Positions 24,496 to 30,963 of a DNA stretch of 64,000 bases are shown one piece after another. The notes beneath the pieces are model-generated. The model was given only the letters and a program-made list of their open reading frames with translations, was not told the origin of the DNA and did not search any database. The stretch's first letter is position 1; every line of letters starts with the position of its first letter. Made by a program: the position numbers and the translations under genes. The stretch comes from a virus, in UHGV virus genome UHGV-0057186. One strand, written 5' to 3'.

Positions 24496-25038
24496 TCACT
24501 TTGAAATCATAGTTGGAATGACAGAATCAAGATAAGTCTTTAACGCAATAGCTTCGTCTTTGGTAAATGTGACAATATGCGCTCGAAAATCATCAATTTG
24601 ACGAATAGTTAAGACATCTCCATCTTCATAACATTTTGATACATTTAAAACAGTTTCATCATTCTGATCGCACTGATCGCAAGCGTTAGTAATAATAGCA
24701 TTGCAATTTTTAAGCCATTTTAAACTATGTTTTCTTTCATTAGAATAATAAAAATATTTAATGTAAGTTATAAAATTATCCCAATTATTAATTGATAAGC
24801 ATATTGACTCGCTTTCAATGTTAAATCCTGGGCATAAAGAATAGAAATGAATTTTATGCTCATCATTAATGCTTACAATTTTATCAGTGTAAGGTTTTTC
24901 AATTTGGGTTAAATGAATAATTTCGCTAGGCGTAAAATATAGCATATCGTCTTCTTGCGTCAAACGATACATATTATTTACTTTTTCTATAGCCAATTCA
25001 CCAAAAAATGAACTAACTTCTAATACTAATCGTTTCAT
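24496..25038 (-). CDS. Hypothetical protein, paralog A of tandem pair
   Basis: 180 aa; shares GFNIE motif and C-terminus TKDEAIALKTYLDSVIPTM with neighbour. Confidence 0.55.
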   Translation of the reverse strand: MKRLVLEVSSFFGELAIEKVNNMYRLTQEDDMLYFTPSEIIHLTQIEKPYTDKIVSINDEHKIHFYSLCPGFNIESESICLSINNWDNFITYIKYFYYSNERKHSLKWLKNCNAIITNACDQCDQNDETVLNVSKCYEDGDVLTIRQIDDFRAHIVTFTKDEAIALKTYLDSVIPTMISK

Positions 25039-25039
25039 A

Positions 25040-25318
25040 TTAATCCTTTTTATTTGCGCTGATTTGTTCTAAAATTTTAGAGTATTCCTTTGTATCAGAT
25101 TTACGTACAATTGATACACTATAAGGCATACTATCGGTGTCTTTTATAAAGCGTTCCAAATGACACTCTAACAAAATTTCTGGATTATAAATCGTGTACA
25201 TCAAATTACCTGTTGCTCCACGATATTGGCAGATTTCTACTGATTGAACACCATTCCATAATTTTGTTAAAACTAAGTCACCTACTTCTAATTTAGGAAA
25301 ACTCATATTATTCACCAA
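25040..25318 (-). CDS. Hypothetical protein
   Basis: 92-aa ORF. Confidence 0.5.
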   Translation of the reverse strand: MVNNMSFPKLEVGDLVLTKLWNGVQSVEICQYRGATGNLMYTIYNPEILLECHLERFIKDTDSMPYSVSIVRKSDTKEYSKILEQISANKKD

Positions 25319-25493
25319 TTAAAGTTTCAATATAAGAATCAAGATTTACTTTAGCTTCTTCCATAAGAGTTTTGTATTTAATCTTGTTAGCATGTCCGGA
25401 GAAAGCTGATTCATCAATAATTGTTGATGTATGAACAGCTTTACTATACGTCTCAATTAATTCTCTTAATTTAAAAGCCTGCTCACTTGTCAT
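25308..25493 (-). CDS. Small helical protein (member of local small-paralog family)
   Basis: 61 aa; aggag RBS 7 nt upstream of ATG 25493. Confidence 0.5.
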   Translation of the reverse strand: MTSEQAFKLRELIETYSKAVHTSTIIDESAFSGHANKIKYKTLMEEAKVNLDSYIETLIGE

Positions 25494-27193: not shown

Positions 27194-27406
27194 TCATTTT
27201 TGTCCTGTATTTACTTTATGCCGATGCACGGCCTTAACTTTATCAAGGTATTTTTCAAAATTTCGCAATCTAGTATAGTCTGCCGGAGATTGGTTGAGTG
27301 ATACTTCTCGACGCAAAGCTGAAATGATATTTCCAACTTCCCTACGAATTTCATCTAATTGAAGAACGGTAAGATTGCGAAGTTGCTTTTCAGTTAATTG
27401 TAGCAT
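27194..27406 (-). CDS. Hypothetical protein (rI.1 position)
   Basis: 70-aa ORF. Confidence 0.5.
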
Positions 27407-27432
27407 ATATACCCCTTTAGTTAGATAAACCT

Positions 27433-27440
27433 ATTTATAA
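27433..27440 (-). promoter_or_regulatory. Late promoter TATAAATA
   Basis: Exact TATAAATA on minus strand about 25 nt upstream of ATG 27406. Confidence 0.5.
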
Positions 27441-27448
27441 CTTTTGCA

Positions 27449-28030
27449 CTAACCGAGCTTTTTAGTTAATTCATTCCAATGTTTTCTACACAAAGAAACA
27501 TAAATTTCATCACCAATACAGATTTGATTACCTTCTTTAACTGGTGTTCCATCTTCCATTAATCGAGCTGTCATAATAGCTTTTTTACCACAATGACAAA
27601 CTGCCTTTAGTTCAATAAGTTTATCTGCAATCGCCAAAAGTTCTTTAGAACCTTCAAATAATTTTCCAGCGAAATCAGTCCTTAGTCCATAAGCCATAAC
27701 AGGAACATTATATGTATCAACAATTCGGCTTAATTGATGCACTTGTTCAGTTTTTAAAAACTGAGCTTCATCTACAAATACACAATGAATATCTTTTTGT
27801 GCTTCAGCCCATTTATAGAACTCAAAAATATCCATATCATCCGTAATAATATTCGCTTCCTGTTTAATTCCAATGCGAGAAACGACTTCACAGACAGAAT
27901 CGCGAGTATCAATAGCAGGCTTAAGAACTAATACACTCATTCCACGTTCTTTATAATTATGCGCAGCAGTCAAAAGAGAAGCAGATTTTCCAGCATTCAT
28001 TGCTGCATAAGTAAAAATTAAACTCGCCAT
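27449..28030 (-). CDS. tk: Thymidine kinase
   Basis: 193 aa; P-loop AMNAGKSASLL, Zn motif CHCGKKA...CRKH, length as in T4 Tk. Confidence 0.92.
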   Translation of the reverse strand: MASLIFTYAAMNAGKSASLLTAAHNYKERGMSVLVLKPAIDTRDSVCEVVSRIGIKQEANIITDDMDIFEFYKWAEAQKDIHCVFVDEAQFLKTEQVHQLSRIVDTYNVPVMAYGLRTDFAGKLFEGSKELLAIADKLIELKAVCHCGKKAIMTARLMEDGTPVKEGNQICIGDEIYVSLCRKHWNELTKKLG

Positions 28031-28039
28031 ATCACCTTC

Positions 28040-28225
28040 TTAAAGCGTATTCACATAAGCTATTAATTCATTTTCTTTCTTATCAAACCGATCAGCAAAT
28101 TCTTCCTGCTGTTCAGGAGATAGCGGGCCGTATTCATCATAAAAGGTGTTTGCTTCTGTATGCTCATCTAGAAGTTCATGGATAAGCTCAAACAATTTAT
28201 CTTTTTGTTCTTTGCTTAGGCTCAC
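28040..28225 (-). CDS. Small helical protein
   Basis: 61-aa ORF. Confidence 0.45.
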   Translation of the reverse strand: MSLSKEQKDKLFELIHELLDEHTEANTFYDEYGPLSPEQQEEFADRFDKKENELIAYVNTL

Positions 28226-28394
28226 AGTATGTCAATCCCCAAAAGTTTTAAAATGACTCGTTTCTGATTCATAACCGCTACGATTGAATGACCGTTGGGG
28301 TCTTTTTGACCTGATCCAATTATAAATCCTTTTTGCGCAGAAAGTTTAATCAAAACATCAAGTTCACGTAATAATTGATATTTTAAATCATCAT

Positions 28395-28622
28395 TCATTT
28401 TGGTTTACCTTCTTTAACGAAATCAGGATAAGGATAAAATCCTGAATAAAATCCTTCACCTTTATGATTGATGCATCCTTTATTAGAACAATAGCACCAA
28501 TAATCGAAATCACAAGTCATTTCATCGTTGCATAAAGCAAAAACAACCGGCCACTTACACTTTTCGCAGTGGGCATTTTTAAGAATACTAGTTTGGCTCA
28601 TAACCATGTAACCTTTAAGCAA
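28395..28622 (-). CDS. Cys-rich small protein (putative Zn ribbon)
   Basis: 75 aa with CEKCKW...CNDEMTCDFDYWCYCSNKGC. Confidence 0.45.
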   Translation of the reverse strand: MLKGYMVMSQTSILKNAHCEKCKWPVVFALCNDEMTCDFDYWCYCSNKGCINHKGEGFYSGFYPYPDFVKEGKPK

Positions 28623-28825
28623 TATTCTTCTACATGTTGTTTACGACCTTTCTTATCAATAAAGGTATATTCAACGAATGTTCCAATGTAGTCTTTATCT
28701 ACATCATGTGGACTATTAATTGGACATTTAGTACGGCAAATGCGTTCCCATTGACGAATAATTACTGCCTTATTCTTTGGGTCATACGGATGTGGATAAT
28801 GTATATTCATAATAACGGTTCCCAA
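28598..28825 (-). CDS. Hypothetical small protein
   Basis: 75-aa ORF. Confidence 0.45.
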   Translation of the reverse strand: MGTVIMNIHYPHPYDPKNKAVIIRQWERICRTKCPINSPHDVDKDYIGTFVEYTFIDKKGRKQHVEEYCLKVTWL

Positions 28826-29274
28826 TCAACAATCACAATTTCTAATTTAGAGGAATATGTATCTAAAATCCCCTCAATAATATCCCAGTTCCCTTTACCT
28901 ATGCCTGCACCAATCCTAGGCATATAGATTGTAGGTTTAATCAGTTTATTTTCACCAAACTCATTTAATTCTAACATACAATTCATTAAAGCGGAATACT
29001 CAAAATTTGGCCCCGGTTGAAATTGAGTATAAAGATTGAAGCAGTAAGCTTTATGAGTCCTAAAGTATTTTTCATAGACTGAGTAAGAACCGAGTTTAGT
29101 TACATCGCCCCATTCTGTCTGTAATTTATCAGCTTCCAAAATTTTAGGGAAAGCTTTAGTTAATTGACCTGCGACTCCAGCTTTCATCGTGTGAAAACAA
29201 TTACATCCATGCGCAATATTTTTACCTTCAGCGAAAAGGGCGACAATATCGCCCTTGATATATTTTACAATCAT
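28807..29274 (-). CDS. Macro-domain protein (ADP-ribose binding/processing fold)
   Basis: 155 aa; KGDIVALFAEGKNIAHGCNCFHTMKAGVAGQL and PRIGAGIGKGNW resemble macro-domain Gly-rich loops. Confidence 0.6.
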   Translation of the reverse strand: MIVKYIKGDIVALFAEGKNIAHGCNCFHTMKAGVAGQLTKAFPKILEADKLQTEWGDVTKLGSYSVYEKYFRTHKAYCFNLYTQFQPGPNFEYSALMNCMLELNEFGENKLIKPTIYMPRIGAGIGKGNWDIIEGILDTYSSKLEIVIVDWEPLL

Positions 29275-29618
29275 CTAGTACTCAATCCTCGATTATAAGA
29301 ATCTACCAAACGGTCAACCATTGAATGACAAGCGGCTTTATCTTTTTCCTCCGCAACTGAACATTCTAAGGTATTCCACTTTTTAGCATATCGTTTTAAC
29401 AATGTATCATTTTTGTATCTGCTTGATTTATCTCTTTCTCCGTCTTTATATGCATATATTAATTTCTGCGCAAATTCAGCTTGGCATGCTTTATTTTTCC
29501 CGCAATAATCCGCTGCAGTACGGTTTACATACTCTCTAATTTCAGTATATGATGTATCTGCTAACGCAGAAGCAGAAAATGAAATTAATCCTATACATAA
29601 AACCAAAATTTTAGTCAT
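29271..29618 (-). CDS. Secreted Cys-containing small protein (signal peptide)
   Basis: 115 aa; N-terminal MTKILVLCIGLISFSASALA signal peptide; 4 Cys. Confidence 0.5.
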   Translation of the reverse strand: MTKILVLCIGLISFSASALADTSYTEIREYVNRTAADYCGKNKACQAEFAQKLIYAYKDGERDKSSRYKNDTLLKRYAKKWNTLECSVAEEKDKAACHSMVDRLVDSYNRGLSTR

Positions 29619-30156
29619 TTACTATTTCCAAAAGTTTATTATTTTTAAGGTAATTAGCCTTTTCTAGGACTTCAGAAGCATATTTAGAACCAGCTTTAAC
29701 ATTCCATCCCGAATTATAAGAGGATATTGCTTTTCTTATATCGCCCTTATGTATATTTAACCAATAAGAAAGTTCAATGTACGCCCAGGAAGCTGAATTG
29801 GATCGTTTATTCAACATTCTTTTTATTTCAGCATCGGTCATATTATAACCAAGTTCCTTAACTCTCGCTCGCATAGTAGGCAAATAATTTTGGAACATTC
29901 CGTAGGCGTGATGCTTTGGTTTAGATTTTAAATTAACTCCGCCAGAGCTTTCTTGCCATAAAATGGCTGCCATTATATGACCTAATCCGCTCTTGTGGAT
30001 ATTTTTGTGTGTTTTATATTTTCCATCCTTAGAAAATTGTTCCCCGAATTGATACGCGTAACGCATGTTATCGAGTTGGACATTACTGAAAGTATGCTCG
30101 GAGCTATGCGCCATCATTGAAATGGCCAATAGACCAGCGAGTAGTGCTTTTCTCAT
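29611..30156 (-). CDS. Secreted lytic transglycosylase-like protein (SLT domain)
   Basis: 181 aa; signal peptide MRKALLAGLLAISMMAHS; motifs AAILWQESSGG, AYGMFQ, SYNSG. Confidence 0.6.
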   Translation of the reverse strand: MRKALLAGLLAISMMAHSSEHTFSNVQLDNMRYAYQFGEQFSKDGKYKTHKNIHKSGLGHIMAAILWQESSGGVNLKSKPKHHAYGMFQNYLPTMRARVKELGYNMTDAEIKRMLNKRSNSASWAYIELSYWLNIHKGDIRKAISSYNSGWNVKAGSKYASEVLEKANYLKNNKLLEIVND

Positions 30157-30163
30157 GCTTACC

Positions 30164-30625
30164 TCATTGAGTTTTAATTACTGCTTTAGAAGCCTTTCCT
30201 GGTAAACGACGACTGTTAATAATTGCCATCCTACATTGAAGTGACGGGTCTTTGAACTTCGCGTTAGGTTTACAAACTGTAAATCCAAGCCAAAGATTTC
30301 CATCTGTGATTTCTAAACGTCCAGGACGATATTCAACCCCATCAATAAAATCCTCGTCAATGTCAGGGCGCGGAGGCATACTCAGGAATTCATTAACTTC
30401 TAAAACATGGTCTTTTATTTTATGGAATAATTCAAAAACATATGTCTCGTCAATCTCCCGTTGAATTGCACGATCAAGAAGATGCTGAGAATATTTTAGA
30501 TGAAACGATGAGACCCCTGCTGCTTTTGATGCCTCACGAATCTCATTGTTAATTTGACGAAACTCCGACTCAAAGTGACGACGAAGCTTATTTCGACGGA
30601 TAAAAACTTCTGTATTGATAGTCAT
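30164..30625 (-). CDS. regB: Endoribonuclease RegB
   Basis: 153-aa ORF with RBS aagaggag; length/position as T4 RegB; early promoter immediately upstream. Confidence 0.8.
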   Translation of the reverse strand: MTINTEVFIRRNKLRRHFESEFRQINNEIREASKAAGVSSFHLKYSQHLLDRAIQREIDETYVFELFHKIKDHVLEVNEFLSMPPRPDIDEDFIDGVEYRPGRLEITDGNLWLGFTVCKPNAKFKDPSLQCRMAIINSRRLPGKASKAVIKTQ

Positions 30626-30652
30626 GTTATTCTCCTCTTAACTGATAGAAAA

Positions 30653-30682
30653 ATTATACCACAGTCAAGAGGAAAAGTAAAC
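30653..30682 (-). promoter_or_regulatory. T4-type early promoter of regB
   Basis: Minus strand GTTTACTTTTCCTCTTGACTGTGGTATAATTTTTCTATCAG. Confidence 0.65.
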
Positions 30683-30684
30683 AG

Positions 30685-30963
30685 TTATTCTTTAAATCTA
30701 ATCAATTTATTCATAGACTTTGAAACTTCTGCACGAACCTCATGTAGATTTTTGAGCTGTTCAAGACGCTGCTCATAGTAAGCAATTTCATCTTCTTCGA
30801 GACAGTCCTGTGAATCTTCTTTAAGATAACGTGCATAGTCCTGGAAAGCGTTACGAACTACTTCCTGGAAGTCATCAAGACTTTGAATTTTCTTAGGAGC
30901 AACAGATACACGACGAGGGGCAGTATAATACTCATAACCAAACCCTGCGCTTAATTGAGCCAT
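30685..30963 (-). CDS. Hypothetical protein (vs.3 position; start refined to ATG 30963)
   Basis: TAATG overlap with upstream gene stop. Confidence 0.45.

Follow-up and report, generated by a model that had tools for sequence, protein, structure and literature searches.

DarTG systems halt phages through ADP-ribosylation of phage DNA, and the counter-measures of T-even phages are layered, with AdfA and AdfN acting against DarTG1 and Tk.4 (AdfM) acting against DarTG2. T4 lacking both anti-DarTG1 factors, adfA and adfN, is still resistant to DarTG2 (PMC11257639), so that a further anti-DarTG2 factor was to be expected. In the HIDEN-SEQ preprint of November 2025, no gene but tk.4 emerged as a significant transposon hit when the host expressed DarTG2, and a clean tk.4 knock-out renders T4 sensitive to DarTG2 (10.1101/2025.11.20.689424). 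HHpred tied T4 Tk.4 to the M. tuberculosis DarG in the same work, and the gene was named adfM, for anti-DarT factor Macrodomain; the evidence is genetic, and the authors go no further than to say that it “seems likely” that ADP-ribose is taken off DNA enzymatically (10.1101/2025.11.20.689424). A paper of 2006 had already assigned tk.4 orthologues to A1pp/macro (PMC1524935), and the note in the T4 RefSeq record carries this assignment too. A second phage-encoded orphan macrodomain that counters DarTG2, gp104 of PhiKZ from the chimalliviruses, shares the name AdfM with Tk.4, and its in vitro activity on DarT2-modified DNA has been demonstrated (Cell Rep 2026, PMC13309987). The published residues set the two proteins apart, since gp104 keeps the DarG-like N23 and K78 (PMC13309987), whereas Tk.4 has a glutamine at the position of the lysine. 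Two different macrodomain lineages, T4 Tk.4 (Gln84) and PhiKZ gp104 (Lys), seem to have received the name AdfM independently of each other, and this double use is a source of annotation confusion.

The window analysed here is a stretch of 64,000 nucleotides from the virus genome UHGV-0057186. It contains a 155-aa ORF running from ATG to TGA at 28807..29274 (-), as seen in both the ORF list and the raw sequence. An earlier sequence-only reading had described this ORF as a macro-domain protein encoded in the tk-regB early region, quoting the strings NIAHGCNC, AGVAGQL and PRIGAGIGKGNW, and we find the ORF and all three strings as described. The product is identical to T4 Tk.4 (NP_049723) at 153 of 155 positions and has the same length. 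Positions 27400-30700 of the window are 99.9% identical to Escherichia phage slur03 and 98% identical to AR1 (megablast), and the window is assigned from its sequence to Tequatrovirus (T4-like phage). The annotated T4 record has the gene order tk, tk.1, tk.2, tk.3, tk.4, vs, vs.1, regB, and the order around tk.4 is matched here. Because the window is T4-like and shows the T4 order tk.3, tk.4, vs, vs.1, regB, the ORF is identified as tk.4, and the slur03 identity and the gene order likewise confirm its placement in the tk-regB region. The feature is thus already known, as tk.4/adfM, with its macro assignment dating from 2006 and its anti-DarTG2 role from 2025.

The gene is tightly packed between its neighbours. 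The stop codon of the upstream gene vs (valyl-tRNA synthetase modifier; 29271..29618, -) overlaps the tk.4 start in an ATGA at 29271..29274, and the tk.4 stop overlaps the ATG of the downstream gene tk.3 (28598..28810, -; T4 tk.3 likewise has 213 nt) in a second ATGA at 28807..28810, both read from the raw sequence. Such overlaps at both ends represent packing typical of phage early-gene runs. Upstream of regB, a sigma-70-type promoter-like site at 30653..30681 (-), composed of TTTACT, a 17-nt spacer and TATAAT with a TG, could, by consensus match only, serve the regB, vs.1, vs, tk.4 run as its early promoter. The promoter scan of the region yields no more sites than expected from shuffled sequence, hence the expression signals are candidates only. 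The tk.4 gene is probably expressed early together with regB, vs.1 and vs.

Tk.4 consists of a single macrodomain. The Pfam Macro profile (PF01661) matches residues 22-132 over profile positions 2-113 of 118, with 25.0 bits, above the curated cut-off of 22 (E 1.9e-5), and PHROG 335 matches with an E value of 1.4e-64. In NCBIfam and in PADLOC, DarG is the sole match, and a weak one. The best matches among PDB sequences are the macrodomains of BT1257, yeast Poa1p, human TARG1/OARD1, SCO6735 and DarG. Judging from the Pfam Macro and PHROG 335 matches and the numerous homologues, tk.4 is a real gene rather than a chance ORF. The AlphaFold prediction from the single sequence reached a pLDDT of 38 and was discarded; the rerun with a 116-sequence alignment was kept and has a pLDDT of 95.2 and a pTM of 0.90. 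The model adopts the three-layer α/β/α macro fold, and Foldseek against the PDB places TARG1, BT1257, Poa1p and DarG at the top ranks. In addition, the two glycine-rich ADP-ribose/phosphate-binding loops, M30-x-x-G33-x-A35 and I121-G-x-G-x-x-x-G128-x-W130, are kept in 250-261 of 261 relatives. The nearest structural neighbours are of the TARG1, DarG and Poa1p-like types, and not of the MacroD, PARG or macroH2A types. Tk.4 is therefore a member of the macro superfamily, of its TARG1/ALC1-like (TARG1/DarG/Poa1p) clade and of the T4 Tk.4/AdfM orthologous group. Pfam Macro, PHROG 335, the PDB matches, the model and Foldseek all bear out the earlier macro-domain call, and the structure prediction proposed with it for placing the protein among macro subfamilies leads to the TARG1/DarG/Poa1p-like clade.

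The conservation of the pocket was analysed in 261 relatives, comprising the homologous-protein hits and the best 150 cluster representatives, all below 60% identity. The PDB sequences of DarG (T. aquaticus and M. tuberculosis), T. africanus DarTG and TARG1 were aligned to the Tk.4 family with hmmalign (family HMM) and with hhalign. The segment H22-G23-C24-N25-C26 (29197..29211, -) is located at the end of strand 2, and its residues are found in 250, 258, 240, 260 and 260 relatives, respectively. N25 corresponds to the active-site residue N22 of DarG, and H22 to H23 of Poa1p. The first glycine-rich loop, M30-K31-A32-G33-V34-A35 (29170..29187, -), has the family consensus M-G-A-G-V-A and aligns with the M-G-K-G-V-A loop of DarG; G33 is present in 260 of the 261 relatives and A35 in every one. 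The second glycine-rich loop, P119-R-I-G-A-G-I-G126-K127-G-N-W130 (28885..28920, -), is conserved as well (P119 in 259, G122 and G124 in 260 each, W130 in 250), and its G126 is aligned with D125 of TARG1 and F152 of Poa1p. The family signature reads H-G-C-N-C ... M-G-x-G-x-A ... N-x-Y-T-Q ... P-x-I-G-x-G-[IL]-[AG]-G-G-x-W. K127 (28894..28896) is particular to the T4 clade (G-I-G-K-G-N-W), the position being occupied by Gly in 241 of 261 relatives.

The third element, N80-L81-Y82-T83-Q84 (29023..29037, -), lies at the end of the central strand and aligns with N-F-P-T-K80 of DarG and L-I-T-K84 of TARG1, which puts Q84 at the position of the catalytic lysine. In the hhalign profile-profile comparison, the Tk.4 family matches DarG with a probability of 99.3%, with NLYTQ on NFPTK in the same register as in hmmalign. 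In keeping with this register, the central strand of the Tk.4 model (E75-84) ends at residue 84, so the placement of Q84 rests on two profile alignments and a strand boundary of the model. Both Q84 and Y82 are invariant (261/261). Mutating the DarG lysine inactivates DarG (PMC8120803). Since the catalytic lysine is replaced by an invariant Q84, the chemistry of Tk.4 cannot be that of DarG and TARG1; in place of the lysine, Tk.4 could draw on H22, N25, Y82 and Q84, all of them invariant or nearly so. The conservation of polar pocket residues among relatives with less than 40% overall identity argues for an enzyme, though one without the lysine chemistry of DarG/TARG1. Absence of the catalytic or binding residues had been named beforehand as the observation that would speak against the macro-domain proposal; the glycine loops and N25 are kept, and the catalytic lysine of DarG/TARG1 is a glutamine.

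Comparison with the individual relatives further delimits the type of the protein. T4 Tk.4 (AdfM) is the orthologue, likewise encoded between vs and tk.3, and all family-invariant residues are identical. The DarG/DarG2 macrodomains (T. aquaticus 5M31/5M3E, M. tuberculosis 5M3I) share about 18-21% identity with Tk.4. The score of Tk.4 against the NCBIfam DarG equivalog NF048014 is 25.1 bits against a cut-off of 250, and the match covers positions 2-146 of the 338-position model, leaving no counterpart of the C-terminal DarT-binding domain of DarG. No darT gene is adjacent to tk.4, the neighbours being vs and tk.3. By equivalog score, lysine, C-terminal domain and gene neighbourhood, Tk.4 is not a DarG family member. 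Human TARG1/OARD1 (4J5R) uses a K84/D125 catalytic dyad, whereas Tk.4 has Q84/G126 at the aligned positions; without the K/D dyad, Tk.4 is classed by its sequence as distinct from TARG1. Bacteroides BT1257 (2FG1/2AFC), described as Poa1p-like, resembles Tk.4 in having Gln at the Q84 position. Yeast Poa1p (6LFQ), which acts on the small molecule ADP-ribose-1''-phosphate, has F-T-S for the Y-T-Q of Tk.4. It also has F152 for G126, a position occupied in the Tk.4 family by A in 188 and G in 72 of 261 relatives. H23 of Poa1p, within the segment H-S-C-N-C-N-G-S, aligns with H22, and its S30 with T29, a position that has T in 146 of the 261 relatives, S in 11 and varying residues in the others; roles for Poa1p H23, S30 and F152 are taken solely from the names of mutant PDB entries (6LFS = H23A; 6LFT).

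We consider it probable, though well short of certain, that the phage makes Tk.4 early as an orphan ADP-ribosyl hydrolase of the macrodomain type, which frees thymidines in phage ssDNA from the ADP-ribose attached by DarT2. The host DarT2 toxin would ADP-ribosylate thymidines in single-stranded phage DNA and thereby block replication; the two glycine-rich loops of Tk.4 would bind the DNA-linked ADP-ribose, and its removal would restore replicable DNA. The gene, the fold, the conserved pocket and the orthology with T4 tk.4 are established here, and in the literature tk.4 is needed by T4 only in the presence of DarTG2. From these we infer a hydrolase acting on thymidine-linked ADP-ribose, and Tk.4 may work like DarG without belonging to its family. 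Reversal of DarT-like DNA ADP-ribosylation was also the leading hypothesis of the sequence-only reading; it has already been tested genetically and upheld for the 99%-identical T4 orthologue, through the DarTG2 transposon hit and the knock-out that became DarTG2-sensitive. The identification of the ORF as tk.4 predicts DarTG2 resistance of this phage, which bears on host-range prediction and phage therapy. The new angle is mechanistic, namely that the Tk.4 active site is without the lysine regarded as indispensable in the only known enzymes that undo thymidine ADP-ribosylation.

A more far-reaching proposal, which we regard as tentative and somewhat doubtful, is that the Tk.4-type macrodomains (H-G-C-N-C ... 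Y-T-Q) are a lineage of very large size, carried mostly by phages, whose members take base-linked ADP-ribose off DNA independently of a lysine, or else that they have another substrate and protect against DarTG2 as a by-product. If true, lysine-independent removal would constitute a second chemistry for thymidine de-ADP-ribosylation, and loop-1 alleles such as G31K could adjust the range of substrates as an arms race with DarT variants proceeds.

The missing lysine of DarG/TARG1 and the closer sequence and structural kinship of Tk.4 to Poa1p-like proteins favour a different native substrate, a small ADP-ribose derivative. Tk.4 would then be a Poa1p-like ADP-ribose-1''-phosphate phosphatase or an O-acetyl-ADP-ribose deacetylase that clears NAD-derived by-products or toxic or signalling metabolites, and DarTG2 protection would be a side activity or an indirect one. 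The occasional phage neighbours of its homologues point the same way. In three non-T4 records (NC_048080.1, MW344055.1 and PQ360875.1), the homologue is found beside a nicotinamide phosphoribosyltransferase, a ribose-phosphate pyrophosphokinase or a MazG-like pyrophosphatase, which hints at a link with NAD+ salvage/reconstitution genes in those lineages; as support, however, these are three anecdotes among the matches listed. Moreover, the pockets of Poa1p and Tk.4 differ, given F-T-S against an invariant Y-T-Q and F152 against G126, and the only condition reported to require tk.4 in T4 is DarTG2, whose toxin modifies DNA. We therefore judge a small-molecule substrate unlikely as the main explanation, although the small-molecule and DNA activities are not mutually exclusive.

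The absence of the turnover lysine would also suit a protein that merely binds, and some macrodomains do serve only as readers. Tk.4 would in that case cover ADP-ribosylated DNA or keep it sequestered, or else block DarT2 by direct binding, in the manner of the second DarG domain. This is improbable, because the 155-aa single domain has nothing that corresponds to the DarT-binding C-terminal domain of DarG, protection by a stoichiometric shield would call for the covering of many modified sites, and H22, N25, Y82 and Q84 are conserved in 96-100% of the 261 relatives, which is typical of active sites. Tk.4 could also reverse or edit, as a device for timing the early programme, the ADP-ribosylation or RNAylation of host proteins by the phage itself, as T4-type phages encode three ADP-ribosyltransferases (Alt, ModA and ModB) and tk.4 lies in an early gene run beside the regulators regB and vs. 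Such a role is very improbable: the residue modified by the Alt and Mod enzymes is arginine, from which ADP-ribose is, to our knowledge, released by ARH/DraG-type enzymes and not by macrodomains, no such phenotype has been reported, and Tk.4 homologues occur in many phage groups beyond the T4-likes. Degradation of Thoeris or other ADP-ribose-derived signals was set aside, there being no evidence in its favour.

Relatives of Tk.4 are common. A set of 5.8 billion proteins holds 169 homologues, and the profile search of 1.84 billion 50% cluster representatives recovers roughly 19,000 relatives in all, with 1338 clusters reaching E<=1e-30 and 9897 reaching E<=1e-10. In tblastn, 2734 of 50,697 phage records (about 5%) contain a relative, including T4-likes of Escherichia, Klebsiella, Salmonella, Acinetobacter, Aeromonas and Vibrio as well as smaller phages (about 85-160 kb) of Escherichia, Salmonella, Klebsiella, Erwinia, Cronobacter and Pseudomonas. 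Among the matches listed, vs is annotated beside the tk.4 match in many T4-like records, from Tequatrovirus and from more distant Escherichia, Enterobacter and Klebsiella phages. Because relatives are common, a confirmed activity of Tk.4 would explain many annotations as “phosphatase” or “hypothetical”. Two MAG proteins labelled as Bacilli and Culicoidibacterales, P0070 and P0098 (L002, 1927-2397; L003, 8001-8480), were considered as bacterial homologues, their contigs being inspected for an adjacent darT or a prophage setting, and rejected. Their contigs carry T4-like Rnl1, PNKP, a Dda-like helicase, DNA ligase and dCMP deaminase; by this gene content they are probably mis-binned phage contigs, and the pair is hence uninformative on a toxin partner. 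In L002, the macrodomain gene is located two genes downstream of RNA ligase 1.

Only G31K and S32A, both within the first glycine-rich loop, distinguish the protein from T4 Tk.4. Codons 31-32 read AAA GCT (Lys-Ala; 29179..29184, -) instead of the GGT TCA (Gly-Ser) of T4, and the anti-DarTG2 phenotype comes from the T4 allele (G31/S32) only. The two codons are situated within a short patch of clustered nucleotide differences from T4 that follows 62 identical bases, which looks like a mosaic exchange. The KA-type 47-mer is found by megablast in 47 phage records (AR1, Yersinia phage PST, slur03 and other slur phages, and others), and the T4/T2-type 47-mer in 169. When IMG/VR was scanned for exact matches to the two loop-1 alleles, 3 and 0 contigs came up, numbers too small to be of use. 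Of the 261 relatives, 221 have G at position 31 and 9 have K, or 13 when Lys and Arg are taken together; distant members with K at this position include P0098. Given its presence in 47 phage records and the K of distant relatives, K31/A32 is a minority allele and a stable natural variant, which is probably functional and would be expected to behave as the T4 allele. Laboratory sublines of T4 differ in tk.4 by Ser36Gly (PMC8573959). In OL964745.1, a record of 159,752 bp named Escherichia phage T4, the Tk.4 match falls into two pieces with 88% identity and two macro-domain CDS are annotated, which suggests a disrupted or divergent tk.4.

Several segments around tk.4 show features of their own. 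Between tk and tk.3, the segment 28030-28597 measures 567 bp as compared with 368 bp in T4, and blastn does not align it with the tk.1/tk.2 segment of T4; we read it as a mosaic replacement directly downstream of tk.4/tk.3. Three small ORFs (-) are found there, at 28040..28225, 28222..28398 and 28395..28622, the last encoding a Cys-rich product of 75 aa (CEKC...C..C...C.C). On the other side of tk.4, vs is the most depleted T4 gene in minimal medium by HIDEN-SEQ (10.1101/2025.11.20.689424). The vs.1 product (29611..30156) has a hydrophobic, signal-peptide-like N-terminus, and vs.1 orthologues weakly match the SLT transglycosylase domain (PMC1524935). Farther away, blastn shows about 446 bp at 25036-25482 that are without counterpart between T4 mobD.1 and mobD.2, and this stretch is interpreted as an insertion or replacement relative to T4.
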